From Candidatus Micrarchaeota archaeon (lineage in GTDB: Archaea > Micrarchaeota > Micrarchaeia > Norongarragalinales > Norongarragalinaceae): 17,323 nucleotides of DNA. The notes beneath the pieces were generated by a model. The model worked only from the letters and a program-made list of their open reading frames with translations. It made no database searches and had not been told where the DNA came from. Made by a program: the position numbers and the translations under genes. Positions 801 to 17,168 of the stretch are shown piece by piece. Numbering within the stretch: the first letter of the stretch is position 1; each line of letters begins with the position of its first letter. Where the stretch lies: the NCBI GenBank assembly GCA_037444485.1, contig JBBIMI010000018.1, forward strand, positions 1 to 17,323, read 5' to 3'.

Positions 801-1217
801 TCAGGTTTGGAAAACGCTTGCCTCGCGTTTTTCGCCGCCAGGATTCTCGAGCTCTATTTCGGCAATGACTTCGTCAAGCTCAGCGCGTTGTTTTTCAAGA
901 ATTTTTTGGATTCGGCGAATGCGTTTTTGATTCAACGCGATTTCCTTGTACTTTCGCGCCGCCTTGTTGAAGTGTTCGATTGAAAGCGTGAAGTATTCTT
1001 CCGCGTCCATCGACTGCGCGATGTCCGCAAGAATCGCGCCCAATAGTTCGTTCGCGGCTACTTTAACGTCGCGCTTTATTTGGTGCTCGCGCTTGAGGTT
1101 TTCTTTAATGATTTTCACGACTCTCGCGTTAGGAAACGGCAAGTGCTCGCTTTCAGCCTCAAGTTCAGCTTCTTCAACAGCTTCCGCTTCTGGACTCGCT
1201 TGTTTTTCTTCAGTCAA
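801..1217 (-). CDS. Histone-fold protein with acidic N-terminal tail and long C-terminal (coiled-coil) helix
   Basis: LPFPNARVVKIIK (histone alpha1, LPxAxVxRIxK-like), QIKRDVKVAANELLGAILADIAQSM (alpha2), TLSIEHFNKA (L2/alpha3), then the heptad helix RIRRIQKILEKQRAELDEVIAEIE. Start moved from 1319 to the TTG at 1217, which has a GAGGGGG SD-like motif upstream. Confidence 0.8.
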   Translation of the reverse strand: MTEEKQASPEAEAVEEAELEAESEHLPFPNARVVKIIKENLKREHQIKRDVKVAANELLGAILADIAQSMDAEEYFTLSIEHFNKAARKYKEIALNQKRIRRIQKILEKQRAELDEVIAEIELENPGGEKREASVFQT

Positions 1218-1230
1218 CGATGCCCCCTCA

Positions 1231-1266
1231 AACACCCTAGTTTTAGAACACCCTAGTTTTAAACAC
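1231..1266. repeat. 16-bp tandem duplication upstream of the histone gene
   Basis: AACACCCTAGTTTTAG (1231-1246), AACACCCTAGTTTTAA (1247-1262), then a partial ACAC. Confidence 0.9.
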
Positions 1267-1364
1267 TGGAATTCGCTGGTTCGAAAAAAAGAAAAAGTTT
1301 TGAACGCGATTAAACGCAATTATTTTGCAGAAACAAGTTTTTAAACCTATCAAAAAAACGTTTT

Positions 1365-1946
1365 TTAAAGCTTGTCTAAAAGCAGGAACACGCGGCGTTT
1401 TCTCGCGTTACGCGGGTTGTCTACAACCACGCGAACCGTAAAGCCAGCTTTGTTGAAAGCGCGCGCGAACGCCATCATTTCCTCTTCACTCTTCGGGTAA
1501 AACTGTGCAACAGCACTCCCACCATCTCGAAGAACGCGGTGAAACTCTCGCGCCGCGCGCGAGACGTCGCCGCCCTTCAACCACTGCAACGCCGAAATAC
1601 TGATTATCCCGTCGAAAGAAGCATTCGAGAAAGGCAACAAACGCAAGTCGCCTTCGACCGCGTCGAAACCACGCGCTCGCGCTTGCGCAACCATCGCCGG
1701 AGAAGCGTCAACGCCTTTCGTCCGCGGGTAACCGACTTCCTTCAACACTTGCATCGAAAAACCGTTTCCGCAACCAGCGTCGAGAAGCACAGCGTCAAGC
1801 GGAAACAACGAGAGTTCAAGAGCCCGCAGCGTCAACCCGCGTTGCGCGCGCCGCATCGCGCGGCTGCCGGCGTAACGCCCCGCCTCGCGCTCGTCGTAAA
1901 ACTCTCGCGCTTCACGAGAAACGTCTTCAGGCCTCTCACTCTTCAC
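1365..1946 (-). CDS. Class I SAM-dependent methyltransferase, Bud23/WBSCR22-like (putative SSU rRNA guanine-N7 methyltransferase)
   Basis: Motif I LLDAGCGNG, GVDASPAMV, LPF..ASFDGIISISALQWL, plus Bud23-type motifs RPE..., FYDEREAxRY, LTLRALEL, VAQFYPKS, AGF..VVVDNP..KRRVFLLL. The start is probably the GTG at 1946 (VKSERPE). The TTG at 2021 would add a Lys-rich extension overlapping the peptidase stop. Confidence 0.85.
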   Translation of the reverse strand: MKSERPEDVSREAREFYDEREAGRYAGSRAMRRAQRGLTLRALELSLFPLDAVLLDAGCGNGFSMQVLKEVGYPRTKGVDASPAMVAQARARGFDAVEGDLRLLPFSNASFDGIISISALQWLKGGDVSRAAREFHRVLRDGGSAVAQFYPKSEEEMMAFARAFNKAGFTVRVVVDNPRNARKRRVFLLLDKL

Positions 1947-2017
1947 TCGCCAGCCGCCCACCAGCCAACTGTCCGCAACTTTCTTTTTCTTGTTTTTCTT
2001 GTTTTTCACTCGTTTTT

Positions 2018-3058
2018 TCAAAGAACCACCATTTCCTCGAAACGCACTCCAAAACCGTTTTCGCTTTGCTTGTAAATGCCTGGCTCTACAGTGAAAACCA
2101 TTCCCTTACGCAGCATTGTTTTTTCTAGACTCAAGCTCTCGTGCACGTCTAAACCAATAAAGTGTCCGATGGACAACCCGATTTTGTTGAATGCAATCTC
2201 ACCAAAACCTTTTTCCTTCAAAACCCGGAAAGCAGCATTGCTTAAAACGCTTCCCTTAACGCCTGGCTTCGCTTTTTTAAGCGCTTCGCGTAACGCCAAC
2301 TGCACTGCGTCGACAGCGTCAGTTTGTTCGCCTCTGCCACTGCCAGCGTAGATAGTTTTTGAGAAATCTCCGCAATAGTAATTGAACCTGACGCCTACGT
2401 CGAACAACAACACTTTGTCCCGCGAAATTTTTTCTGCTGACGGAACACTGTGAGGGTTTGCAGCCCGCTCGCCGCTCAACACTATTGGCGGAAAAGCGTT
2501 CAATGCAACCCCTAAATCCCGCGCGGTTTTCTCAAGCAATCCAGCAACAGCGTTTTCTGAACGCCCGACAAGGTTTCTTTTAAGAACTTCAGCGACAGTT
2601 TTCTTCGAAAGCGCTTGAGCCTTCTTCAAGCAAGCTGCTTCGATGTGGTCTTTAATCAAACGCAACTCAAACAATTGCTTGCCGAAAGCCTTCACGCGCT
2701 TCCTTCGTTTAATCAAATCAAACGTTGCTATAGCAGCAACGTCGCTCGCAGTGTCCACGCCTACAACGTTCGCGCGCGCTTCGTCGAGCGCTTGCTTGAA
2801 CTGCCTTTTGAAGTCAACCAACTGCTCGAACTCGATTACGTCAAGCGCACGCGTTTTCGGCCGCGAAAGCGAGTGCAAGCGCGCTGAATCAGGGGTGACG
2901 AGCAATAACGCGGGAAAAGACTCTTCACCGGAATAATAATAAACGTTAGAGTTGAATCCCTCGCGAGTGCCGAGCACAAGCAAGTCGATTCCCTTGGTTT
3001 CAAGCGTTGCTTGCAAACGCTTCAAGCGCTTACAGTAATCAAACCTTAGTTTTTCCAT
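2018..3058 (-). CDS. Xaa-Pro aminopeptidase/dipeptidase, M24B family
   Basis: Creatinase-N-like N-terminus (RLKRLQATLETKGIDLLVL...NVYYYSG), LRLIKD..E linker, and metal ligands FDVG, GDFS, GHFIGLDVHE, TVEPGIY, GVRFEE. Confidence 0.93.
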   Translation of the reverse strand: MEKLRFDYCKRLKRLQATLETKGIDLLVLGTREGFNSNVYYYSGEESFPALLLVTPDSARLHSLSRPKTRALDVIEFEQLVDFKRQFKQALDEARANVVGVDTASDVAAIATFDLIKRRKRVKAFGKQLFELRLIKDHIEAACLKKAQALSKKTVAEVLKRNLVGRSENAVAGLLEKTARDLGVALNAFPPIVLSGERAANPHSVPSAEKISRDKVLLFDVGVRFNYYCGDFSKTIYAGSGRGEQTDAVDAVQLALREALKKAKPGVKGSVLSNAAFRVLKEKGFGEIAFNKIGLSIGHFIGLDVHESLSLEKTMLRKGMVFTVEPGIYKQSENGFGVRFEEMVVL

Positions 3059-3090
3059 TTTAGTAACACCGGCAGCGCTGTTGGCTTAAG

Positions 3091-3098
3091 TTTATAAA
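3091..3098. promoter_or_regulatory. TATA box (TTTATAAA) in the short divergent region between the peptidase and SSB genes
   Basis: Perfect palindromic archaeal TATA consensus, about 33 nt upstream of the peptidase ATG and upstream of the SSB gene. Confidence 0.6.
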
Positions 3099-3162
3099 CA
3101 AGTTCAATAAAAAAAGAGTGTTGCCTTATTTAAAAAAAGGCAGGAAAGGGTGGGTAGTTAAA

Positions 3163-3450
3163 GTGAAAATAAGCGAATTAACTCCAGGAACCGGAAACGT
3201 AGAACTTGAAGCTGAAGTCGTAGGCGTTGAAGAACCCCGCGAAATCAGTAAAGGCGGGCGAACGCTTAGAGTTGCTAACGCGACTTTGAAAGACGACTCC
3301 GGCACCATAACCCTGGTTCTCTGGAACGAGAACATTGACAAGATTCAGGAAGGAAGCGTGGTGCGCGTTTCCAACGGCTACGTGAACACGTGGCAGGACA
3401 AGACGCAGTTGACGCTAGGGAAATTCGGTAAACTTGAAGTACTCGAGTAA
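3163..3450 (+). CDS. ssb: Single OB-fold single-stranded DNA-binding protein (SSB/RPA-like)
   Basis: MKISELTPG..NVELEAEVV...RVANATLKDDSGTITLVLWNE...EGSVVRVSNGY..WQ..QLTLGKFG, with the DxSG and LW aromatic motifs of crenarchaeal SSB/hSSB1-like OB folds. Start set at GTG 3163 after a GGGTGGG purine-rich motif; the track gives 3118. Confidence 0.88.
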   Translation: MKISELTPGTGNVELEAEVVGVEEPREISKGGRTLRVANATLKDDSGTITLVLWNENIDKIQEGSVVRVSNGYVNTWQDKTQLTLGKFGKLEVLE

Positions 3451-3519
3451 AAAAAGTAAAAGAGTAAAAAAGCAGAAAGAAACAAAAAAAAACAATCAGA
3501 AAACTACTTTCAAGAAAAC

Positions 3520-3670
3520 TGCTTTCTTACTTTCTCTTTCCTTCCCCCTCTACTCTTACTTTCTCTTTTTTTCTTTCTTTTTTCTTTCTTCTTTCTTTTT
3601 TCACTTTTCTTCTTCGTTTTTTTCTTTCTTTTTCTCTTCCTTTTTTTCTATTTCTTTTTCTTCCTTCTTA
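3520..3670. repeat. Low-complexity polypyrimidine (+) / polypurine (-) tract covering the rps6e 3' end and the ssb/rps6e convergent gap
   Basis: Almost only C/T on the + strand (TTTC/TTTTTC units). Part encodes the KKEEKEIEKKEEKKKEKNEEEK tail. The T-runs could act as an oligo-U terminator for ssb. Confidence 0.75.
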
Positions 3671-4041
3671 GTTTTGAAGCCTAATTCTGAGAGCGTCTTG
3701 CTGCCGTATTCTTTAATTACTGCATTCAATTGAACTGTTTCAAGCGAGACAGTGTTGCCGACAACGCTTTTCTTTAACTTTTGTCCTTTGCGTAATCCCC
3801 GCACTCCAGGCGGGTTAGCAAGCACCGCAGTAACCCGTTTTTGGCCAGCAACGTCTGCACGCATTGGAACTCCATCCTTGTTGCTGCCGCCAGTTATTTG
3901 AAGCTTGAAACCATCAAGTCCAACGATTCCGCCGTCGAAAACGTCACCGATTTTCTTGCCGTAAAAAACGCTTTCCCGCTCTTTGGGAACTTCCCGTTGA
4001 AACGAAGCACCAGTTTTAACTTCATTAATTACTACACGCAT
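3601..4041 (-). CDS. rps6e: 30S ribosomal protein S6e
   Basis: GKKIGDVFDGGIVGLDGFKLQITGGSNKDGVPMRADV...G.R..KGQKLKKSVVGNTVS...QLNAVI is the S6e signature. SD GGTGA lies upstream. Confidence 0.96.
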   Translation of the reverse strand: MRVVINEVKTGASFQREVPKERESVFYGKKIGDVFDGGIVGLDGFKLQITGGSNKDGVPMRADVAGQKRVTAVLANPPGVRGLRKGQKLKKSVVGNTVSLETVQLNAVIKEYGSKTLSELGFKTKKEEKEIEKKEEKKKEKNEEEK

Positions 4042-4100
4042 TTAATCAAAATCACCTTCGCAAAACGAATAGAATACGCGAAAAGTTATGAAAAACCAAG

Positions 4101-4108
4101 TTTATAAA
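4101..4108. promoter_or_regulatory. TATA box (TTTATAAA) with purine-rich BRE-like flank, between divergent rps6e and the 4171 ORF
   Basis: GAAAAACCAAG-TTTATAAA-AA. A second TTATAAAT lies at about 4118-4125. Confidence 0.6.
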
Positions 4109-4170
4109 AACCACTCGTTATAAATGGTTATGAACGCGTAATAAACTCTGGTTGGAGGGGTGACAAAAAA

Positions 4171-4497
4171 TTGGCTGGATTAAAAAAAATTCTTTTGAGG
4201 CTGCCTATGAGAATCGAAATTCCTAAAGTAAAAAATGAAATTCCTAAAGTAAAAAATTTTTTCGTTACCGCTGAATTAGTAAAGTGAGATAAGTATAACT
4301 ATGTAGTAGTGCTACCTGAAGGCTTGAGAGGAAAAATAGAACTCAAAGTGCATACTGAAGTGCAGGGACCTGAAGATCCTGAAAAAGTAAAAAGCGACGT
4401 TTTAAAATTCTTGGAAAACAAGAAAGAGCTAATAAAAAGAAAAATTATTAATATGGCATTATATGGAAAAGAAATGGAATCCGTTAAAGTAACTTGA
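4171..4497 (+). pseudogene. Small orphan gene interrupted by one in-frame TGA (4285-4287), or a 62-aa hypothetical CDS at 4309-4497
   Basis: Strong SD GGAGGGGTGA (4154-4163) precedes TTG 4171. The frame reads MAGLKKILLRLPMRIEIPKVKNEIPKVKNFFVTAELVK*DKYNYVVVLPEGLRGKIELK...KVT*, continuous with the track ORF 4309-4497. Confidence 0.55.
4216..4257 (+). repeat. Perfect 21-bp in-frame tandem duplication (EIPKVKN x2)
   Basis: GAAATTCCTAAAGTAAAAAAT at 4216-4236 and 4237-4257. Confidence 0.95.
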
Positions 4498-5077
4498 TTT
4501 GCTTTGGTTTAATCAATCGTTTCGTTTTTCCAGTCTTTAAATAGCCAAGCAGGTTTCTCTCGATTTCCTTAAATGTTTGAGTTTTAATCATCGTCTTCGA
4601 AGCTTTTATTAAGTCTTTCGACGACTTCAATTCAAGGAAAGGCAGGTTTTTCTTTAAATTACTCAAAGCTGTATTATGTTGGTTTAACGCTGCTCTAATC
4701 AGTTTTTCAGAATACTTGACTTCAATGTTTGAACTCGGCTTTTCAACCGTCTTCAGCAGCCCTGGAAGCGCAGTTGTAAAAAAAATCGATTTCGCGGCCT
4801 TGCTTACCTTTAAGGGCTCACCTTCTGCGCCCGATTCAAGCACTACTAGAAAATGCGCTGCTGGATGAAAGACCGACAAAAGCTTACGCTTGTTCTTGAT
4901 TCCAACTCCAGTCACAACCAAATGCGATTCATTTAAAACTTTCCGCAAGCTTTTTTTGATTCCGAAAGCTTTCAAGATGTTAGTCAAAGCCTTAATTTCA
5001 GGAGCCTTAAACTCTATCTTGATGTTCTGGTCATAGTATTCGCGAAGTTCTTCAGGGATCTTCCGGCCAAAGAACAT
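4484..5077 (-). CDS. Hypothetical Lys-rich protein (197 aa)
   Basis: Long ORF with ATG start, a T-rich TATA-like element (TTTTTTAAT on the - strand) about 25 nt upstream and no SD, so probably leaderless. No family recognised. It overlaps the convergent 4309-4497 ORF by 14 bp. Confidence 0.75.
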   Translation of the reverse strand: MFFGRKIPEELREYYDQNIKIEFKAPEIKALTNILKAFGIKKSLRKVLNESHLVVTGVGIKNKRKLLSVFHPAAHFLVVLESGAEGEPLKVSKAAKSIFFTTALPGLLKTVEKPSSNIEVKYSEKLIRAALNQHNTALSNLKKNLPFLELKSSKDLIKASKTMIKTQTFKEIERNLLGYLKTGKTKRLIKPKQIKLL

Positions 5078-5347: not shown

Positions 5348-6040
5348 ATGAAGAAGAAACTCGCTATATCACTCGGCGGTTCTCTCCTCTACAAGAATGG
5401 TTCGATAGACGCGCACTACGTGCGCGAAATCTGCGCCTTGCTTCTCGCTGAAAGCCGCGCTTGCGCGATTGCTTTAAGCGTTGGCGGGGGTGCGCCTTCC
5501 CGCGAGTACGCGCGTGCAGTGCGCGAACTGACGGGAAACGAGTTTCTTGCCGACCGGGCAGCGATTTACGCTACTCGCGCGAACGCGACCGTGGTGCTCA
5601 GCGCACTTGGTGAACGCGCTTTTCCGAAAGTAATCACTGATTTCGATGACGCTGCAGTAGCGTTGAATGAAGGCAAGATTCCGGTGTGCGGCGGAATGAT
5701 TGAAGGGATTACTACTGACACTGTTGCGTTGTTGCTCGCGGAACGCATTGGCGCGAAGAAGCTCGTCAACTTAAGCAAAGTCGACGCGATTTATTCAGGT
5801 GACCCGCGCGTCGATGCGCGCGCGAAGAAACTCTCGCTTCTCTCGCACAAGCAGCTTATCGAGCTCGCGGCGCGGTTTGATGAACGCCGCGCGACAACTA
5901 ACTTCGTGTTCGACTTGATGGCTTGCAAGCTCGCGGCTAGGTCGAACATAGAACTGCATTTCGTGGACGGGCGTGACTTGAAGCAAGTGAAGAACGCGGT
6001 TGAGGGAGTAAAGCATTCCGGCACGGTCGTAAAAAACTGA
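5348..6040 (+). CDS. pyrH: Uridylate (UMP) kinase, archaeal type
   Basis: ISLGGSLL, VGGGAPSREY, DRAAIYATRANA, GGMIEGITTDTVALLLAE, NLSKVDAIYSGDPR...AKK, VFDLMACKLAARS, GTVV. Start ATG 5348; alternatives are 5336 and 5339. Confidence 0.95.
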   Translation: MKKKLAISLGGSLLYKNGSIDAHYVREICALLLAESRACAIALSVGGGAPSREYARAVRELTGNEFLADRAAIYATRANATVVLSALGERAFPKVITDFDDAAVALNEGKIPVCGGMIEGITTDTVALLLAERIGAKKLVNLSKVDAIYSGDPRVDARAKKLSLLSHKQLIELAARFDERRATTNFVFDLMACKLAARSNIELHFVDGRDLKQVKNAVEGVKHSGTVVKN

Positions 6041-6075
6041 TTCAGTGTTTTACCATGAATTAAATTTTTTTTGGT

Positions 6076-7704
6076 TTAAAGCTTTTTTTGGGTTTTTGCA
6101 CCCGAATTTTTTAAGTCTCTCGAGAGAATAGCGATTACGTCCCAATTAATTAATTCTTTTTGTTTTAAATTCTTGATTTCTTTCCCTAAATCTTTTTTTA
6201 TTTTATTTATTATTTCAGTCATATTTTTTTCTGGTGGGTAGTCTAGTGAAAGAACATCGCCTTGAACCACTTTGTCGTTTGCTCCCAAATATTTTTTAAG
6301 GTGAACCTTGATTTTTGAAATTACGCCATTTGGAATACTGCGGGATTGTTTAAGCTTTGCTCCTTTAACTGAAAGACCTCTAAATGAATCATCATTCAAA
6401 ACCGCTAGTTCCCGAACAGTGGTTCCGGCCGGGACTTTAAAACTTTTCTTTTCTCCGTCTGGTTGAATTACTGAAACCGTGATGAAATCGCGTCCTAAAA
6501 TTTTTTTCAGCGTATAAAACGCATTTTGTTCTCCTATTGTTTCCTTCAATAAATCAAGATACCCAAATTTTTTCGTTTCCTTGCTTAACTCGCCTGACCT
6601 TAAAACCCTGCATGGCGGGCCGTACTCGTTAAAGGCATGCATTTTCTCGCCGACGATTTGGAGTTCTACAAGGTTTTCAGCGTTTTTCTCTGTTCCAGGA
6701 AGCCAGCCAATCAAGTGGTAAGCCTTGTAACCGTTTCTCTTCGGGTTTTCAACATAATTTTTTTCTGCGGGCGTGCCTCTCGGCAAGTAAGGCTCGCCTG
6801 CCAGCGTGAAACCGTTTTCTTTAAGCACTTCAGCTAATGGGATAACGTCTCTGCCTCGTTTTACGATTATTCGCAAGCCTTTCACGTCGTGAATTTTTTT
6901 GTATGAAATCCCGCGTGCCATCGCTTTCCTGTAAATACTGCTAGGAGTCTTAACTCTGTGCTGTACTTCCACGACATCAACTAGAGAACCTCTCGTTGGA
7001 ATAATCTTTCCGTTTTCATCAATCTTCAAGCCAAGAAAGTCAAGCAAGTTTTCCTTCAATCGTAAAAGCTTTTCCTCGTAATTTTGTTTTTTAATCCAGT
7101 CGCTTATTTCCTCGTAGTAACTCTTGTTCTCGAGCTTAAAAACCAAGTCCTCCATATCTGAAACTAGTTTATAGTAATTCAATGCTTGCGCGATTGGGGT
7201 TAGAGTCTTCACTTTTAGTATTTGCGTATTTAACGACTTGTCAAACTTTTTGCTTTGGGTTGCAACAGGTTTCAGTTTTTCGAATTCTTGTGCGGCATGC
7301 ACTAGGAAAGCCTGCGGGTCGTTCGTTTGCGTAATCAAGTCAATCAATTGTTTGACGTCCGTCTCAATCTTTGGTTTTATTTCAATCGCTGTCCTAAGAG
7401 CATTAAAGTTTTTAACGATTTCAATAACGCGAACATTGTTTAAGGTTATTGGTTTGCTTCCGCCTTTAAGTCTTATTTCCTTCAAATTCAATGATTCAAT
7501 CTTTTCTTTCGGTAGCCCGTGAAGCAAACCGGCGACTATAGTATCTGCTTCAGCGTTGTTTTTTAAGAGAATGAGTGCGGTATTCCAGTAATGCTCGAAG
7601 TCTTTACGCTGCTCTTTAGGCTGCATTCCAGGATAAGTGTCGTAATAAGCTTTTCTAGCCACTTCCTTAATCTCGTTCAAATGATCTTCAGTGAATTGAA
7701 CCAC
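6076..7704 (-). CDS. Long RelA/SpoT homologue (RSH): degenerate HD hydrolase, synthetase domain and TGS-like domain; no ZFD/ACT
   Basis: Pseudo-HD: HYWNTALIL...ADTIVAGLLHG. Linker PIAQALNYYKLVSDMEDLVFK resembles PLAHRLG...ELEDLxF. Synthetase: HRVKTPSSIYRK, IHDVKGLRIIV, NYVENPKRNGYKAYH, VELQI...MHAFNEYG. TGS: VIQPDGEKKSFKVPAGTTVRELA...GAKL...QGDVLSL. Confidence 0.88.
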   Translation of the reverse strand: MVQFTEDHLNEIKEVARKAYYDTYPGMQPKEQRKDFEHYWNTALILLKNNAEADTIVAGLLHGLPKEKIESLNLKEIRLKGGSKPITLNNVRVIEIVKNFNALRTAIEIKPKIETDVKQLIDLITQTNDPQAFLVHAAQEFEKLKPVATQSKKFDKSLNTQILKVKTLTPIAQALNYYKLVSDMEDLVFKLENKSYYEEISDWIKKQNYEEKLLRLKENLLDFLGLKIDENGKIIPTRGSLVDVVEVQHRVKTPSSIYRKAMARGISYKKIHDVKGLRIIVKRGRDVIPLAEVLKENGFTLAGEPYLPRGTPAEKNYVENPKRNGYKAYHLIGWLPGTEKNAENLVELQIVGEKMHAFNEYGPPCRVLRSGELSKETKKFGYLDLLKETIGEQNAFYTLKKILGRDFITVSVIQPDGEKKSFKVPAGTTVRELAVLNDDSFRGLSVKGAKLKQSRSIPNGVISKIKVHLKKYLGANDKVVQGDVLSLDYPPEKNMTEIINKIKKDLGKEIKNLKQKELINWDVIAILSRDLKNSGAKTQKKL

Positions 7705-7727
7705 GAGTAAAGAAAGTGTTCAACCTA

Positions 7728-7737
7728 GTATAAAAAA
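7728..7737 (-). promoter_or_regulatory. TATA box of the RSH gene (likely leaderless transcript)
   Basis: TTTTTTATAC on the - strand, ending about 24 nt before the GTG start at 7704. No SD motif. Confidence 0.6.
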
Positions 7738-7746
7738 GCGTGTGTA

Positions 7747-7772
7747 AAAACAAGTTTTCAAAACAAGTTTTC
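7747..7772. repeat. 13-bp tandem repeat of a quasi-palindrome upstream of the RSH promoter
   Basis: AAAACAAGTTTTC at 7747-7759 and 7760-7772. Each copy contains AAAAC-AA-GTTTT dyad symmetry. Confidence 0.85.
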
Positions 7773-7836
7773 AAGAAAGCAATTCCGCGCTTTCCACAAT
7801 TGCTTTTTTTCTAAAAGCAAGCTGTTGGGCTTTGTT

Positions 7837-10248
7837 TCAACGCGTTCTCGCTTTCTTTAACAAAACGCGTTTTTCAGCGCTTGAGATGATGCGACGCGTT
7901 ACGTCAATAACGTCCGGATTCACGCTAACGCTGTCGATTCCGAATTCCACGAGCGCTTCAGCAAATTCAGGGTAGACGCTTGGAGCTTGACCGCACAACG
8001 AAACGCGCACGCCCCGCGAGTGACAAACGCGAATCAGTTTCTCTATTGACTTCAACACAGCTTCATTCCGTTCATCGAAGTCTTCTGCGACTAACGGGTC
8101 GTCCCTGTCAACGCCGAGCGTGAGCATCGTCAAATCATTGCTTCCAATACTCATGAAATCGATTCCAACTTCACAGAATTCCTTCGCGAGAATAACAACG
8201 CTCGGCACTTCACACATGATTCCGAATTTGAAGTCGTGACTCTGCAGCAAGCCTTCACTCTCAACGATTTTCTTGCATTCTTCCAATTCGCGGACTGTCC
8301 GCACGAAGGGAATCATGAGCCACAAGTTCTTCATTCCATACTGGTCGCGCACTTTCTTCAACGCCCGCAGCTCGAGGCGGAAGACGTCCGGCTGTTTGAC
8401 GTAACGGTAACAACCGCGAAAGCCAATGAGCGGGTTTTCTTCCTTCGGCTCGAACTCCTCGCCGCCCCGCAAGCCGCGGTATTCGTTCGTCTTGAAGTCA
8501 GTAGCGCGATAGATTACTGGCCTCGGGTGGAATGGAGCGCAAATCTTGCGCAAGCCACGCGCCAAGCCGTCAATAAACTCTTGCTCTCGGCGTTCGGCAA
8601 TGAGCTTCTTCGGGTGAACGCCCAAGCCGGCAATCATGAACTCAGCGCGCAGCAGCCCCACTCCGTCGACGTTCTGCTTCGAAACAGCTTCAGCCTGGTC
8701 GGGCTCCGCGAGGTTGACGTAAACCTTCGTGCCGGTAACAATCGGAGTCGCGAGCGCAACGTGTTCTGCGACTTTTACCTCGACAGGCTTTTCCTCTTCA
8801 ATAGCAACAGCGCCTTCGTAAACAACTCCTCGCTTGGCGTCTACGGTAATCGCCTGTCCGTCCTGCAGAATGCGGGTCGCCTGCTGCGTTCCCACGACGC
8901 ACGGCACGCCGAGCTCGCGCGAAACAATTGCAGCGTGGCACGTCATCCCGCCGCTGTCCGTCACGATGGCCTTCGCGCGCTTCATCGCAGGCACGAAGTC
9001 AGGACTTGTCATTTCGGTGACTAGCACATCGCCTTCGCGGACTTTGTTCAACTCGCGCAAGTCCAAAACGATTTTGACGGTCCCGCTTGCGACTCCGGGC
9101 GAAGCGCCCAATCCCTGAAGCAAAACGCGGGCGTTCTCGAGCGAAACGCTCGGCGCTTTCGAAACCGCTGTTGCAAGCGCTTCGGGCGAGGGCAGCACAG
9201 CCGCCGCTTCAACCGGCGCGAGCGCAGGCGCTGCCGCAGGCGCGGCTGCAGGCGCGGGTTCGCCGCGCTGGCGCTTGAGCGTCGTGACAGCCCGCGTTTG
9301 AACTATGTAAACGTTCTTGCCTTCAACCGCCCATTCTATGTCTTGCGGCCAGCCGTAGTGTTCTTCAATCCGCCGCGCGAGTTTCGCGAGCACGCGAATC
9401 TCTCCGTCACTCAACTTCTGCGTTTCTTGAAGTTCTTCAGGAACTTCAACGCGTTGCGTCTCGCCTCCCGGTTTGCGGACCACCATGTCTTTCTGCCGCG
9501 CGAGTTTCTTGTCTAAAACCTGTAAACTCGTTTTGTCTACAACGTAACGGTCTGGAGTAATCGAGCCAGAAACAACTGACTCACCTAAACCCAGTCCTGC
9601 TTCGATGACGATTTTGTTTTCGTCGCCTGACATTGGGTCTACAGTAAAAATAACTCCGGCCTTGTCGCTGTCAACCATTTTTTCGACAATGACAGCAATT
9701 CCTGTTTCCACTTGCGAAAAACCTTGTTGCTTGCGGTAGTAAATCGCGCGCGCTTCAAACAATGAAGCCCAACATTTTTGCACGGCCTTCACAACGTTTT
9801 CGCCACCCGCAATGTTCAGGAAAGTCGCTTGTTGGCCTGCGAACGAGAATTTAGGTAGGTCTTCCGCAGTAGCGCTGCTCCTGATTGCTACGAACACTTC
9901 CTCACCGATTGAGGGAATCAAGTCGACTCCGCACAACTTGTTGTAAGCGCGAATGATTTGCGAACGCGTTTCTTCGCCCATCTGTCCCTGGAGTATCGCG
10001 CGCTTGATTTCGTGGCTCGCTTGCTGGAGCGCGTTCGAATCCTGCACGTTCAAGTCGTCAGTTTTGCGTTTGATGAGTTCGTCAATCTTGTTTTTCTTAA
10101 CGAATTCAAAGTAAGCGTCGGCGCACACTACGAACGCAGGCGGAACGGGAAGATTCAAGTTAAACATTTCAGCCAAGTTCGCGCCCTTTCCGCCGGCTAT
10201 CTTCAAACTGTCTTTGCTTAACTCGTTAAGCCAGTAAACCGCTTTCAA
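7837..10248 (-). CDS. ppsA: Phosphoenolpyruvate synthase (pyruvate, water dikinase)
   Basis: GGKGANLAEM, AIRSSATAEDLPKFSFAGQQATFLN, PQDIEWA, VQTRAVTT, phospho-His motif GGMTCHAAIVSRELG, DGVGLLRAEF, EENPLIGFRG, SIGSNDLT, CGQAPS. Start set at TTG 10248 (MKAVYWLNEL); the track gives 10290. Confidence 0.97.
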   Translation of the reverse strand: MKAVYWLNELSKDSLKIAGGKGANLAEMFNLNLPVPPAFVVCADAYFEFVKKNKIDELIKRKTDDLNVQDSNALQQASHEIKRAILQGQMGEETRSQIIRAYNKLCGVDLIPSIGEEVFVAIRSSATAEDLPKFSFAGQQATFLNIAGGENVVKAVQKCWASLFEARAIYYRKQQGFSQVETGIAVIVEKMVDSDKAGVIFTVDPMSGDENKIVIEAGLGLGESVVSGSITPDRYVVDKTSLQVLDKKLARQKDMVVRKPGGETQRVEVPEELQETQKLSDGEIRVLAKLARRIEEHYGWPQDIEWAVEGKNVYIVQTRAVTTLKRQRGEPAPAAAPAAAPALAPVEAAAVLPSPEALATAVSKAPSVSLENARVLLQGLGASPGVASGTVKIVLDLRELNKVREGDVLVTEMTSPDFVPAMKRAKAIVTDSGGMTCHAAIVSRELGVPCVVGTQQATRILQDGQAITVDAKRGVVYEGAVAIEEEKPVEVKVAEHVALATPIVTGTKVYVNLAEPDQAEAVSKQNVDGVGLLRAEFMIAGLGVHPKKLIAERREQEFIDGLARGLRKICAPFHPRPVIYRATDFKTNEYRGLRGGEEFEPKEENPLIGFRGCYRYVKQPDVFRLELRALKKVRDQYGMKNLWLMIPFVRTVRELEECKKIVESEGLLQSHDFKFGIMCEVPSVVILAKEFCEVGIDFMSIGSNDLTMLTLGVDRDDPLVAEDFDERNEAVLKSIEKLIRVCHSRGVRVSLCGQAPSVYPEFAEALVEFGIDSVSVNPDVIDVTRRIISSAEKRVLLKKARTR

Positions 10249-11584: not shown

Positions 11585-12871
11585 ATGAGTTTCGTGAATA
11601 AAACCATTTATGCGAGCGACGCGTTTCAGTCAACCGTTTTTTTCGCTTTAATTTCTAGTTTAACCTTGCTCGCATTCCTTCCCTTCGCAAGCGCTGCGGT
11701 TTCAAGCAGTGAAGCGCAAACGAAAATCGCGTTAGTGTTGGGAAGCGAAGCAAAGGAAGTGCTTTCGCTTTCGAAGCCGCTTGAAGTCGGCGCTTCACGA
11801 TACTGGGTTTTCTTTTACTCGATTTACTCTCCGAAACGCGTTCTCGCAGCTGTTGACGATGACGCGGGCGAAATCGTCGCCGACAAAGACAAACTAAAGG
11901 CAGTCGGCAAAGCTGTTTACGAGTACGGGGTTGTGCAAGAGTACTTGAAGAAAAACGGTTGGGGTTTCGACGCCGTTGAACCAGTGATTTCAAGCGTTGT
12001 GAATGCTTTGAATGAAAACGAGCGCAAACTCTCTGACCTCACCGCGAGCGTGGAACAACGTTATCCGACGCTTTCCTTCCGCAGCGTAGAAGCGAACTTG
12101 AATTCGTTGACGGAACAAGCCTTCGCGCTCGAAACACTCCTGCAAGACGGAAACTCGCTTGAAAACATTTTCGACACCGAGTACACGGACTCAGCGCTAT
12201 ACCAGTTAGTGACGCAGTACAACAACTCGCTTTCACTCTTGAACAAATTCTCGAATTCGTACGACGATTACCGCAAAACGATTTCTGACGTGCAGTCTCA
12301 AGCCTACAAAGCAAACATTACTGACCCTGATTACACGAGCATCAACACGAACTTAGAGAGGTTGCGGGACATCGCGTTCAACCAGCTTTACGAAAAATTA
12401 AAGAAGGAAAAGCCAAGCATAGAATTCAATAAGCTGCTTGACGCGGACCGCGAGAATGCGTGGATTACTGATGGGATAGCGTCTTTCGAGTTCAAGAAAA
12501 ACTATTTCGACGCTACGAACGCATTCAACGAACAACAAGCAACAGTCAAACAAATCCTTGCAGCAGAATCAGCCCTCTCGCAATGCGGTATTACGACGAC
12601 GAAATTAAAGCAAGACTGGAACGAAATCGAGTACTTCATGAGCAAAGGCAGTTCGAACGCTTACGCTAAAGTCGTAAAGAAAATGCCGTCCATAACTGCG
12701 CAAGTGCAAGAAATTCAAGAAAAATATGAAGCGTGCTTAAACCCGCCGCGCTCGCGCGGCACAACCCGCGGCGTCAATTACAGCGCGGCAGTCGCCGCGC
12801 TCTTCGTAATCGCAATCGCGGCCACCAGCTACTGGTACTGGAAGAAAAAAAAAGAAGAAGAACAATACTGA
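11585..12871 (+). CDS. Secreted, C-terminally membrane-anchored protein with a PepSY-like N-domain and a long helical stalk
   Basis: Signal peptide (VFFALISSLTLLAFLPFASA|A). PepSY-like pattern SSSEAQTKIA...YWVFFY...AAVDDDAGEIV, amphipathic helical body, C-terminal TM segment YSAAVAALFVIAIAATSYWYW followed by KKKKEEEQY. The domain call is tentative. Confidence 0.7.
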   Translation: MSFVNKTIYASDAFQSTVFFALISSLTLLAFLPFASAAVSSSEAQTKIALVLGSEAKEVLSLSKPLEVGASRYWVFFYSIYSPKRVLAAVDDDAGEIVADKDKLKAVGKAVYEYGVVQEYLKKNGWGFDAVEPVISSVVNALNENERKLSDLTASVEQRYPTLSFRSVEANLNSLTEQAFALETLLQDGNSLENIFDTEYTDSALYQLVTQYNNSLSLLNKFSNSYDDYRKTISDVQSQAYKANITDPDYTSINTNLERLRDIAFNQLYEKLKKEKPSIEFNKLLDADRENAWITDGIASFEFKKNYFDATNAFNEQQATVKQILAAESALSQCGITTTKLKQDWNEIEYFMSKGSSNAYAKVVKKMPSITAQVQEIQEKYEACLNPPRSRGTTRGVNYSAAVAALFVIAIAATSYWYWKKKKEEEQY

Positions 12872-14528: not shown

Positions 14529-14654
14529 AACGCGGTTTTTTGCTTCAAGCTCAAAAAACGCTTAAAATGAAGTTTTATAAACCACGTTTACATTACTTTT
14601 TTAATTCAAAACCAGCACCGTTTGGGCGCGCCCGCCCGAAAGATAGAGGTAAAG

Positions 14655-17168
14655 ATGCAGTTGAAAGGAAGAATTCTTCTCAAAACCAGTTTGCTCGCTG
14701 TTTCACTCGTCCTGCTTTCACAATTCGCTTCAAGCCTGGATGTTTCAGCATGCGGCGACTTGAATTCCACGAACACGTACTACAAGCTCACTCAAAACAT
14801 TGAGGCGGGTTACACTTGCTTCAACGTCACCGCCAGCAACATCACTCTCGATTGCCAAGGCTTCAACATCAACTACAGCACGTCTACCGACGGCGGCATC
14901 GGCATTAACGTAACAGAACAAAACGACACGGTAATCAAAAATTGTAAGTTGAATGCAACCAACTCGAGCGTAAACCAACCGACCGCAATTTACTTGAGAT
15001 ATTCAAACAACTCGCAGATTTACAACAACACGATTACAGTCAACAGCACGACTGACATTGCGGTTTGGGTTGAATACGATTCAAACAACAACACGATCAA
15101 CAACAACACCATAATCGAATCGTACGACGCGTTCTGGTTTAGGCAAACCATGAACAACACGGCAAACAGGAACAACATCACATCGCAGTTAAGCGGCGCC
15201 TTCGGGATTTACGCCGAAGCCACTTCAAACAGCACCTTCGAAAACAACAACATTAGCATGGTAGATAGCAGTTACGCCTTCATGCTATTGAACGCAAGCA
15301 ACTACAACTTCCTGAACAACAATAATATTTACGTCACCGACTCCAGCTACGGAATTTACTTGGAAACCGCAAACGGCAACACCATCGACAACAACCCAGT
15401 TTACCTGACGAGCAATGGAAGCGGCATTTACGTATCGAATTCGAACAACAACATGATAACCAACAGCATCATAAACGCTTCCGGCACCAACGACTACGGA
15501 ATACTGCTTTCCGAAGCAAACTATTCCAACATAAGCAACTACGTAATCAAGGGAAGCAATGTTTCAAACGGCTTTGGAATTACAGCCTTCTACAGCGCGT
15601 TCTACAATCTTTTTTCGAACGTCACTATAGAAAACTTCACTTACGGAGTTCACGCTGCTGGTTCTCTAGGCATTTGTGATTGTTTCAATCCAGGACCGAA
15701 AAAACCTCTGAGGAACAGTAACGAAAACGTTTTCGACAGGATTACTATAAACAATGCGGATTACGGTTACTACACGAACAACCCGCCTAGCGTCTCGTGC
15801 TGGTGCCCGTTCCCTCCGCCAGGTCACGAGAGTGTTAGGAGAGGCTATCACACGTACCACAACACGCTGTCCAACGCAATCATTACAAACGCGATCGACG
15901 GAATATCAATAAACGGCAGCGAAGAAAACACGTTCCTAAACAATACAATCACCAATTCTTCCGGCAAGGCAATCTACATGACGGATTATGCGCATGCGAT
16001 CACGTCAAGCATCGTCAAAAGCAATACAATCAACAAAGCGAACTACTGCATATTCCTGGATGCTCCGGGAGAGGGGATCTACAACAATAGCTTCTATTAC
16101 AACAGACTGTCTTCATGCGGTTACGGAATAACTCTCGATAACAATGCATACGATAACGTGTTCGCGGACAGTGCCATCGGGCAATCAAACAACGCGGACG
16201 TTTACGCCCCAAGCGTCGCCGTAAGCACGTTCACAAACACGTTCCTGAACACTACTTTCAACAAGACGAACGCCACTATAAACAACGGCGGAATAGTCGT
16301 GCAATGGTACTTGAGAACGCGCGTGATGGACACGAGCGGCAGCGGAATCGAAAACGCTGAAGTAAACATCACCGACGTGAACGGCACGCTGGTGTACAGC
16401 GTTAGTACGGGAGCGGACGGTTACACGCAGACGCAGAACGTCAGCGAATTCTGGCAGAACGCCACTAGCCTAGCTAACTACACTCCGCACACGGTTTCAG
16501 CGATGACAAATCCGAGCGCGAGCGCCACTACCCAAATGACTGAAAACAGGGAAGTGATTCTCACGCTGGACTACCAACCTCCCGCAATCTCGAACGTGCG
16601 CATCGTCGACGTCACGCAAAACACGGTCACCATCGCTTGGGACACGAGCAAAAACGCGAATGAAACCATTGAATATGGAACCAGCGCGGACTATGGAACG
16701 AATTACACGAATGCAGCGCGCGCCACCACGCACTCGGCTTTCATAACCGGCTTGAACAAAGCGACCACTTACCACTACAAGATTCACGCTTGCGGAACAA
16801 CAAACTGCGCCAACACCAGCGACTACACGTTTGACACAGTAGGCGAGACGGGCGGTTACGGGGGAGGCACGGGCGCAGGCGGAGGAGCGCTTCCAACCCC
16901 CAGCCCAATTCCAACGCCGACTGAACAAGCAAGCCCAAGCGCGCCGCAAGCGCCAAGCGCGGGGCCCGCGGGCGAAGCTGGAGCACAAGGCGGAACAACA
17001 ACACCCGAAGCGACCGCGCAGCCAAGCTTAGAAGCGAGTCCAAGTCCAACGCCGCAGCCGACCGGCGCGGGAGTCAACGTGCCTTTGGCCGTCGGACTGA
17101 CGATAGTGCTCGCCGCGGCCGCATATTTTATAGCAACGCGAGCGAGATGGTTTCAAAAGAAAAAGTGA
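14655..17168 (+). CDS. Large cell-surface glycoprotein: NosD-like right-handed parallel beta-helix, beta-sandwich, FN3, Pro/Thr/Ala linker and C-terminal TM anchor
   Basis: SD GAGGT before ATG 14655. Signal peptide; N-cap ACGDLNS...YYKLTQNI...CFNVTASNITLDCQG; many GIYL..SNNN.I.NN.I (PbH1) repeats; WYLRTRVMDTSGSGIENAEVNITD sandwich; FN3 (VTIAWDT...IEYG...ITGL..ATTYHYKI); GG-rich and PTPSP linker; TM segment plus KKK; very many N-x-S/T sequons. Confidence 0.88.
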   Translation: MQLKGRILLKTSLLAVSLVLLSQFASSLDVSACGDLNSTNTYYKLTQNIEAGYTCFNVTASNITLDCQGFNINYSTSTDGGIGINVTEQNDTVIKNCKLNATNSSVNQPTAIYLRYSNNSQIYNNTITVNSTTDIAVWVEYDSNNNTINNNTIIESYDAFWFRQTMNNTANRNNITSQLSGAFGIYAEATSNSTFENNNISMVDSSYAFMLLNASNYNFLNNNNIYVTDSSYGIYLETANGNTIDNNPVYLTSNGSGIYVSNSNNNMITNSIINASGTNDYGILLSEANYSNISNYVIKGSNVSNGFGITAFYSAFYNLFSNVTIENFTYGVHAAGSLGICDCFNPGPKKPLRNSNENVFDRITINNADYGYYTNNPPSVSCWCPFPPPGHESVRRGYHTYHNTLSNAIITNAIDGISINGSEENTFLNNTITNSSGKAIYMTDYAHAITSSIVKSNTINKANYCIFLDAPGEGIYNNSFYYNRLSSCGYGITLDNNAYDNVFADSAIGQSNNADVYAPSVAVSTFTNTFLNTTFNKTNATINNGGIVVQWYLRTRVMDTSGSGIENAEVNITDVNGTLVYSVSTGADGYTQTQNVSEFWQNATSLANYTPHTVSAMTNPSASATTQMTENREVILTLDYQPPAISNVRIVDVTQNTVTIAWDTSKNANETIEYGTSADYGTNYTNAARATTHSAFITGLNKATTYHYKIHACGTTNCANTSDYTFDTVGETGGYGGGTGAGGGALPTPSPIPTPTEQASPSAPQAPSAGPAGEAGAQGGTTTPEATAQPSLEASPSPTPQPTGAGVNVPLAVGLTIVLAAAAYFIATRARWFQKKK

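Follow-up and report, generated by a model that had tools for sequence, protein, structure and literature searches.

Bud23 is a textbook factor of eukaryotic 40S subunit biogenesis: the yeast enzyme (PDB 4QTT/4QTU), together with Trm112, forms N7-methylguanosine (m7G) at position 1575, and its human counterpart WBSCR22/BUD23 (PDB 6G4W, 7WTS–7WTW), on the pre-40S particle, forms m7G1639. Eukaryotic Bud23 requires Trm112 for stability and activity, as stated where PMC5372719 treats the complex, and the relevant section of PMC3950347 equates yeast G1575/A1576 with bacterial G1338/A1339, two residues in contact with the P-site tRNA at its anticodon stem. Archaea are said, in the sections of two articles that bear on the point (PMC5372719, 2017; PMC6144793, 2018), to have no protein with significant similarity to Bud23, and the authors of the later one state there that neither Haloferax volcanii nor archaea in general have a Bud23 orthologue. 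A 2013 orthology survey listed BUD23 "orthologs" in all taxa analysed, generic methyltransferases not being told apart, and that part of the survey reads as a generic methyltransferase match (PMC3919561). In open-access full text, with subscription journals and supplements outside our scope, we found no description of an archaeal Bud23. Here we describe a Bud23-like gene in a 17,323-nt stretch of DNA (hereafter the window; contig C18 in our numbering) from a Candidatus Micrarchaeota archaeon (assembly GCA_037444485.1, contig JBBIMI010000018.1). The genome measures 0.96 Mb in 58 contigs, is 95% complete and groups with Micrarchaeota in a tree of EF-2 with a support of 100.

The gene is a minus-strand open reading frame (ORF) at 1365..2021 that encodes a class I S-adenosylmethionine (SAM) methyltransferase of 193–218 aa, depending on the start. 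In HMMER searches against all PDB chains, the top match was yeast Bud23 (4qtt_B, E 4.3e-30, 108 bits, query 30–215 aligned with chain 3–199), and the other top distinct sequences were a 275-aa form of yeast Bud23, two forms of human WBSCR22 (about 1e-24 to 4e-24) and, in fifth place, 9xab, a 282-aa "methyltransferase-like protein" (5e-23). The best chain outside Bud23, 3l8d, reached E 1.9e-14 and 57 bits, leaving a gap of about 50 bits. An AlphaFold2 model built with 30 homologues (mean predicted local distance difference test score 93) shows a Rossmann-like strand order, and a Foldseek search of the PDB placed Bud23/WBSCR22 chains at ranks 1–8, with template modeling (TM) scores by target of 0.72–0.91, root-mean-square deviations (rmsd) of 1.6–2.1 Å and 34–36% identity. 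Rank 9 was 1vlm (TM 0.63, rmsd 4.6 Å), a TM-score gap of about 0.25 between Bud23 and every other solved methyltransferase (0.88 versus 0.63). Conversely, a hidden Markov model (HMM) made from 40 eukaryote-type domains alone gave the window ORF 154.7 bits (E 1.7e-45), with C12:6854-7690 second in this genome at 43.3 bits; with the same model, short archaeal members of the family all scored at least 82 bits and generic outgroup domains at most 44. Sequence, fold and tree place the protein in the Bud23 family, and we consider it very probably a genuine minimal archaeal member of Bud23/WBSCR22. The sequence-only reading, which had proposed a Bud23 counterpart rather than a BioC- or UbiE-like enzyme, is upheld by the PDB search, the fold, the reciprocal HMM, quick trees and NCBIfam scores.

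Likeness to yeast Bud23 had been put forward motif by motif, and each motif named is present in the HMMER alignment to 4qtt_B. The aligned pairs (window/yeast) are RPE/RPE, EFYDEREAGRY/IFYNDSEAHKY, LTLRALEL/MTLRALEL and VAQFYPK/VAQFYPK, together with SFDGIISISALQWL/SFDAAISISAIQWL and AGFTVRVVVDNPRNARKRRVFLLL/AGFSGGLVVDDPESKKNKKYYLVL; with Bud23 at 108 bits and the best non-Bud23 chain at 57, the likeness goes far beyond chance or generic SAM motifs. On the minus strand, R30 P31 E32 (1926..1934) opens a Bud23-specific N-terminal segment of the form RPE..FY..EA..Y..Q60. It is followed by SAM-binding motif I, LDAGCGNG (residues 80–87, 1761..1784), in which G85 aligns with yeast G57, and by the acidic residue of motif II, D105 in GVDAS (1707..1709), which aligns with yeast D77, the yeast residues being counted from the alignment to 4qtt_B. 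These are the sites altered in the yeast mutants G57E and D77K. Two further Bud23-family signatures are SISALQWL beside the active site (residues 141–148, 1578..1601) and QFYPK (residues 173–177, 1491..1505). The family-specific pattern that the protein shares also includes IQ..T.RALEL, which continues the N-terminal segment, and (D/N)xP...K(K/R)..(F/Y)L. Across 17 archaeal and 6 eukaryotic sequences, residues P31, Q60, S141, S143, Q146, W147, Q173 and Y175, none of them part of the SAM motifs, are invariant, as are LDAGCGNG and D105.

To place the protein among its relatives, we built a first tree of 147 rows, comprising representatives with one match covering at least 85% of the 205-position family profile, 30 listed proteins (the query, three close relatives and named ones), both domains of protein P0123 and the first domain of P0134, with 4 generic methyltransferase domains as outgroups; fragments and two-piece matches were left out. 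In this quick tree, the eukaryote-type rows formed one clade (48 rows, SH-like approximate likelihood ratio test [SH-aLRT] support 100, stem 0.84) nested among short archaeal proteins. Named Asgard proteins formed a clade with support of 97–98, the query and its three closest relatives fell in a Micrarchaeota clade (98), and the family stood apart from the outgroups with an SH-aLRT of 86. A quick tree of a 79-row subset gave supports of 92 for Asgard, 93 for outgroups and 99 for eukaryotes, and in a careful tree search the Asgard clade had support of 98/91 and eukaryotes formed one clade in 82% of bootstrap trees. The phylogeny check suggested earlier thus puts the window protein with Bud23, apart from three to four generic outgroups (SH-aLRT 86–94 in quick trees).

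The description of the gene as an archaeal counterpart of Bud23 holds, with the qualification that Asgard proteins and another DPANN clade lie nearer to eukaryotes in the trees. In the free trees, the nearest neighbours of eukaryotes are short proteins that best match a 0.6-Mb DPANN-type genome. A tree constrained to unite Asgard and eukaryotic rows, a grouping named after the first tree was seen, though on prior biological grounds, had a log-likelihood 10.4 above that of the free quick tree, and its p value in the approximately unbiased test was 0.65; these values permit, without demonstrating, that the eukaryotic gene came from Asgard archaea, and the branching order of eukaryotes, Asgard and DPANN is weakly supported. 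In Asgard loci, the gene for ribosomal protein S25e lies, divergently transcribed, about 150–200 bp from the Bud23-like gene in all 33 labelled loci and in 4 further Asgard-type loci. Farther upstream, 28 of the Asgard-labelled loci encode a Gtr1/RagA-like GTPase, and 24 encode a ThiS-like protein. Near the S25e/Bud23-like pair, loci L045–L097 also carry a large gene (median about 1400 aa in its cluster). A cluster of 65-aa ORFs that directly precedes the Asgard genes was weighed as a possible hidden partner and rejected, since it is the antisense shadow of the S25e gene.

The distribution of the family across archaea is patchy. A word-indexed protein search returned 582 proteins at E ≤ 1e-5; among the 120 listed, Micrarchaeota-type proteins came first (40–87% identity, mostly about 190–245 aa), followed by proteins of about 210 aa labelled as Promethearchaeota or Loki-, Heimdall-, Hermod-, Odin- or Hodarchaeota (33–39% identity), and 7 of these 120 homologues carry the IMG label "18S rRNA (guanine1575-N7)-methyltransferase". 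An exhaustive search of representatives gave 17925 matches at E ≤ 1e-3, a number that fell to 450 at E ≤ 1e-10 and to 33 at E ≤ 1e-30. When representatives of at least 240 aa were scanned for PF12589 (WBS_methylT), 16 of 63 matched at E ≤ 1e-12 and were therefore marked as eukaryotic Bud23; Streblomastix and a set of eukaryotic transcriptomes each contributed one of them. In species-representative genomes, 149 stretches encode a relative, and the titles of the best 80 of these 149 name Micrarchaeota, Micrarchaeia or Norongarragalinales (22), Iainarchaeum (4), Pacearchaeota (3), Woesearchaeota (8), Nanoarchaeota (2) and Asgard archaea (33; Promethearchaeota, Hod-, Hermod- and Odinarchaeota), the remaining 8 reading plainly "archaeon" or "uncultured archaeon". 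By EF-2, 4 of these last 8 (genomes of 4.1–5.2 Mb) group with Asgard and 3 (0.6–1.2 Mb) with DPANN, and one (0.7 Mb) had no EF-2 match. None of the 80 titles names a Euryarchaeota- or TACK-type organism; a survey across archaea, proposed when the gene was first read, thus finds the family in DPANN lineages and Asgard, with no TACK title among the best 80 of 149.

Within the GTDB phylum of the window genome, a strong match (at least 232 bits) was found in 6 of 121 sampled genomes, all of them from the order of the window genome (10 genomes of that order sampled) and none among the 111 sampled genomes of other orders; three weak partial matches (74–83 bits) were set aside as generic methyltransferases. 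Of 151 genomes sampled from the phylum to which one Asgard carrier belongs, 33 had a match at E ≤ 1e-25, and 21 of the 33 had two copies. These counts give what was found among the genomes searched rather than absence, the Asgard sample comes without completeness figures, and the Micrarchaeota samples include one unpublished genome (G028), which enters tallies only. The carriers are one Micrarchaeota order, Iain-, Woese-, Pace- and Nanoarchaeota and, on the Asgard side, roughly one in five of the genomes sampled. The second Bud23-like paralogue of many Asgard genomes is more divergent. Some relatives are fused: P0123 (412 aa, from a metagenome) is a tandem of two divergent Bud23-like domains with a Lys-rich linker between them, and P0134 and locus L052 (5818-7101) each join a Bud23-like domain to a second methyltransferase domain. 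Such architectures may hint at dimeric or pseudo-dimeric action.

We next compared the window protein and its genome with the two accessories of eukaryotic Bud23, the C-terminal extension and Trm112. PF12589 has no match in the window protein at E ≤ 0.01, and the protein ends 3 residues past the last strand of the catalytic domain, in agreement with the sequence-only reading of a catalytic domain without the basic C-terminal extension; we treat the extension as a eukaryotic addition rather than a catalytic requirement. The window holds no Trm112 gene, as had been remarked, and a search of the whole 95%-complete genome with PF03966 gave no match above cut-off and no free-standing Trm112, only a fused Trm112-like domain on contig C19. 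This best match of the genome (15.7 bits; 12–16 overall) lies at the N-terminus of a 308-aa methyltransferase (C19:14135-15058, minus strand; 703-1626 of locus L001), in which a degenerate Trm112-like zinc knuckle that has lost its first Cys pair is fused to the methyltransferase domain. Other PF03966 matches in the genome fell in TFB, glycyl-tRNA synthetase and a 56-aa zinc-ribbon frame. When the free Trm112 proteins of four related genomes were used singly and as a profile, the C19 frame was the sole match (E 1.8e-6) among 15117 frames. The 56-aa frame (C3:22309-22347) was rejected as a Trm112: PF03966 matches it only at positions 23–35 (15.4 bits), and the Trm112 queries miss it.

Fusion is the commonest form of Trm112 match in the phylum sample, where 72 of 121 genomes had a match at E ≤ 0.01 and 37 a match over the cut-off, mostly in methyltransferase fusions of 300–450 aa. 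We also searched PF03966 in 46 of the 80 carrier genomes (17 Asgard-labelled, 29 DPANN-type). At E ≤ 0.001, Trm112 matched in 15 of the 17 Asgard-labelled carriers, mostly in frames of about 210 aa; among the 29 DPANN-type carriers, 15 had no match, 11 had one only in frames of at least 300 aa and 3 had one in a frame of less than 150 aa. The same search was positive in 4 of 4 archaeal control genomes. Within the limits set by incomplete metagenome-assembled genomes and a short model, DPANN Bud23-like genes mostly occur without a canonical free Trm112.

The N-terminus of the protein depends on the choice of start codon. A start at GTG 1946 (residue 26), as first proposed, is too far in, since it removes a GW(R/K)VK motif just before RPE that is conserved in DPANN homologues (in Asgard copies, F(K/R)FDVK takes its place). 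Because this motif lies upstream of 1946, the start is GTG 1961 (198 aa), GTG 2009 (214 aa, the start used in the database entry for the protein, P0002) or TTG 2021 (218 aa), with the stop codon at 1365-1367; with TTG 2021, the frame overlaps the M24 peptidase gene upstream of it by 4 nt, at the stop of that gene. Residues 1–25 (1947..2021, minus strand) would form a possible N-terminal tail, with 10 K/R among residues 1–14 and GGWR at 22–25. At least 5 K/R precede RPE in 22 of the 60 DPANN-type homologues in which RPE could be recognised and in 0 of 57 Asgard-type ones, and in relatives such as locus L020 the Bud23-like gene begins directly at the GW motif, after the peptidase stop. A similar Lys-rich stretch forms the linker of P0123. 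The Lys-rich tail is thus lineage-specific, and it may or may not be translated in the window gene; among sequencing runs containing the window stretch, we found none of RNA type, only DNA-type metagenome runs. The core of the window protein has an isoelectric point (pI) of 10.0, compared with medians of 9.3 for archaeal cores and 6.0 for eukaryotic cores (n = 20).

As for the presumed target, the 16S rRNA of the window genome reads GAAGTTGGAATGGCTAGTAATCG, versus GAAGTCGGAATCGCTAGTAATCG in the annotated E. coli 16S, and the equivalents of G1338 and A1339 are kept; the guanine that the sequence-only reading had marked for checking is present. Position 1338 is the second G of GGAAT, counted from the 3′ end of the E. 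coli 16S gene in its 1542-nt numbering. By analogy with Bud23, the enzyme would bind SAM through motif I (LDAGCGNG) and D105 and hold a flipped-out guanine in a pocket lined by the RPE..FY..Y..Q, SISALQW and QFYP segments. Acting on a particle still in assembly, it would then methylate N7 of the 16S guanine in the small-subunit head that is equivalent to E. coli G1338 and yeast G1575. Neither a free Trm112 activator nor the basic C-terminal extension would take part, and RNA affinity may come instead from the basic core (pI about 10) and perhaps from the Lys-rich tail. Substrate, N7 chemistry, independence from Trm112 and the role of the tail are what we infer from homology, on which the mechanism rests; to the statement as a whole, a catalytic-domain enzyme of the Bud23 family making m7G at the G1338 equivalent without free Trm112, we give an even chance. 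The 16S rRNA gene of this genome (C12:21763-24721, minus strand; 1501-4459 of locus L005) spans 2959 nt, versus a model of 1478 positions. On its sense strand lie ORFs of 205 and 195 aa, both with LAGLIDADG-like motifs (L005 2100-2717 and 2763-3350); the gene probably contains two introns or insertions encoding homing endonucleases.

Several points weigh against the assignment or the proposed activity. Pfam returns only generic class I methyltransferase matches (Methyltransf_11, PF08241, E 1.5e-20), and no NCBIfam model reaches its cut-off for the window protein, the matches again being generic methyltransferases. The outgroup sampling is small (4 domains, without named BioC or UbiE sequences), and the careful tree pulls one outgroup, the long-branch C12_6854 of the window's own genome, into the eukaryotic rows with a support of 16/0. 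We treated this placement (branch 3.64) as a long-branch artefact and removed the row, and a quick tree with the other 3 outgroups gave supports of 100 for eukaryotes, 92 for Asgard and 94 for outgroups. Other methyltransferases of the genome are equally basic, and the high pI is therefore weak evidence for RNA binding; the target guanine is universally conserved, so that its presence discriminates nothing. Archaeal 16S rRNAs analysed so far carry no modification at the matching position, according to the sections of PMC5372719 and PMC6144793 that deal with it, although the organisms concerned lack a Bud23-like gene and the missing modification is therefore no test. Since eukaryotic Bud23 needs Trm112 and this genome shows only a degenerate fused Trm112-like domain, the protein could lack stability on its own, depend on a partner that escaped recognition or serve some other role, and for every archaeal member Bud23-like activity is predicted from homology.

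These points bear unequally on the alternatives. That the protein is a generic small-molecule methyltransferase of the BioC, UbiE or trans-aconitate type merely resembling Bud23 was already disfavoured, and we consider it highly improbable. Pfam matches confined to Methyltransf_11/25/23/12/31, the names UbiE or trans-aconitate 2-methyltransferase on some homologue entries and a best NCBIfam match to the DVU_1556 family would fit such an enzyme, but the NCBIfam scores are far under their cut-offs: 71 bits versus 155 for DVU_1556; 49.9 versus 184.95 for BioC (TIGR02072); and, for UbiE-MenG, 29.4 versus 158.35 (TIGR01934) and 16–31 versus 216–327 (PRK00216 models), with ranges of 28–31 versus 158–327 for UbiE and of 28–50 versus 158–342 for BioC and UbiE together. 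Against it, too, stand the conserved Bud23-specific N-terminal segment and signatures outside the SAM motifs, the gaps of about 50 bits and 0.25 in TM score that separate Bud23 from every other solved methyltransferase and the genome size of 0.96 Mb.

Closer to the proposed mechanism is the possibility that a true Bud23 homologue acts on another substrate, a different guanine or position in rRNA or tRNA, G1575 specificity having come later with Trm112 dependence and the C-terminal extension. This is unlikely, in our estimate, although the protein has neither free Trm112 nor extension, its identity to eukaryotic Bud23 is only 34–38%, its QW-to-QFYP segment is 9 residues shorter than the eukaryotic one (25 versus 34) and m7G is unreported at the G1338 equivalent in the archaeal 16S rRNAs covered where PMC5372719 discusses them; opposing it are the invariance of family-specific active-site residues between archaeal and eukaryotic members, the predicted fold, which superposes at 1.6–2.1 Å, and the tie of Asgard copies to the gene of S25e, a small-subunit head protein. 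Rather less likely still is a Bud23-type enzyme that needs a Trm112-like activator after all, be it the C19 domain acting in trans, a small protein too divergent to be found or one supplied by the host of a likely symbiotic archaeon. All known Bud23 enzymes use Trm112, according to the part of PMC5372719 concerned, the genome is 95% complete but not closed, and the C19 domain matches a related genome's free Trm112 by phmmer at E 1.8e-6, its PF03966 scores of 12–16 bits being below cut-off. A fused Trm112-like domain would be expected to serve its own methyltransferase, however, no small zinc-ribbon gene conserved beside the Bud23-like gene was found in related loci and the DPANN-type carriers mostly have no PF03966 match (15 of 29) or only a fused one (11 of 29), a frame of less than 150 aa occurring in 3 of 29.

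Proceeding from the preferred reading, a stand-alone enzyme that methylates the G1338 equivalent, we tentatively propose, at slightly less than even odds, that Bud23 is not a eukaryotic invention. A Trm112-independent archaeal enzyme would have made m7G at the P-site-contacting G1338; the eukaryotic form would have arisen from an Asgard copy beside the gene for eS25 and later gained the C-terminal extension and dependence on Trm112, and DPANN lineages, this order included, would share the gene by transfer among archaea. If true, these archaea carry a "eukaryotic" rRNA modification never seen in archaeal ribosomes. Contrary to the reviews of 2017–2018, a textbook 40S biogenesis factor has a clear homologue in DPANN lineages and Asgard, and eukaryotic Bud23 branches from within the diversity of short archaeal proteins, adding a ribosome-biogenesis or modification factor to the eukaryote-like genes shared with Asgard archaea. 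The novelty is tempered by IMG auto-annotation, which already names some of the homologues, and by the "orthologs" of the 2013 survey. One testable prediction follows: in archaea that carry the gene, 16S rRNA should have m7G at the equivalent of G1338. The window protein is also a natural minimal form of the enzyme, against which the contributions of Trm112 and of the C-terminal extension can be judged.

In the window itself, the gene for an M24 (Xaa-Pro type) peptidase lies directly upstream (2018..3058, minus strand), as it does in 6 related Micrarchaeota loci. Downstream, a minus-strand gene at 801..1319 encodes 172 aa; the N-terminal part of its product is acidic, and PF00808 gives it a histone-fold match that is weak and below cut-off (E 0.0048). 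Five related Micrarchaeota loci have a homologue of this protein (148–172 aa) 3′ of their Bud23-like gene. The window also encodes ribosomal protein S6e, 1.6 kb from the Bud23-like gene, phosphoenolpyruvate synthase, a SpoU methylase and a protein resembling AMP phosphorylase; scanning for Rfam families and for tRNA genes gave no match in the window. A 542-aa protein at 6076-7704 on the minus strand combines RelA_SpoT (E 1.2e-17) and HD_4 domains of the (p)ppGpp synthetase/hydrolase type, which is unusual for archaea and is found here in a tiny DPANN genome. On the plus strand, a 428-aa protein (11585-12871) has Peptidase_C98 as its sole Pfam match, which is weak and below cut-off (E 8.9e-5); that family resembles ubiquitin/SUMO-specific peptidases. 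Also on the plus strand is a probable surface protein of 848 aa (14622-17168), in which NosD/right-handed beta-helix repeats occur together with fn3 and purple acid phosphatase N-terminal-like domains. G+C content falls to 0.35–0.40 at 4001-5000 and 6001-8000, versus 0.47–0.56 elsewhere in the window, and a 197-aa ORF at 4484-5077 has no family match.

Among known systems, the window protein is most like yeast Bud23, which it matches end to end over the catalytic domain (TM by target 0.88–0.91, rmsd 1.6–1.8 Å), with RPE, FY..EA..Y, TLRALEL, SISAxQWL, QFYPK and the residues equivalent to G57 and D77 common to both. It differs in lacking the basic C-terminal extension, in coming from a genome without a detected free Trm112, in a segment after QWL that is about 9 residues shorter and in having an extra GW(R/K)VK before RPE, a possible Lys-rich tail and a basic core. 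From QW to QFYP, the window protein has 25 residues, 12 of 13 measured eukaryotic rows have 34, 12 of 14 Asgard rows have 33 and Micrarchaeota-type rows have 25–33, a spread that makes the segment unclean as a derived character shared by Asgard and eukaryotes, and we set it aside as such. Human WBSCR22 (E 4e-24; Foldseek ranks 3 and 5–7, TM by target 0.72–0.86, 35–36% identity) differs in the same ways, with the addition that the window protein has no nuclear or nucleolar context. No Dhr1-type partner is known in archaea. The Trm112-dependent Hvo_0019 of Haloferax volcanii (PDB 6F5Z) shares an archaeal origin and the class I fold but is a distant match (Foldseek rank 11, TM 0.59–0.61, 17% identity). 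The short Asgard proteins of about 210 aa are, like the window protein, catalytic domains only and belong to the same family in trees (33–39% identity), and they differ in forming their own clade (98/91), in a segment after QWL of eukaryotic length and in lying beside S25e, in genomes that mostly have a Trm112 match (15/17) and that in many cases carry a second paralogue.

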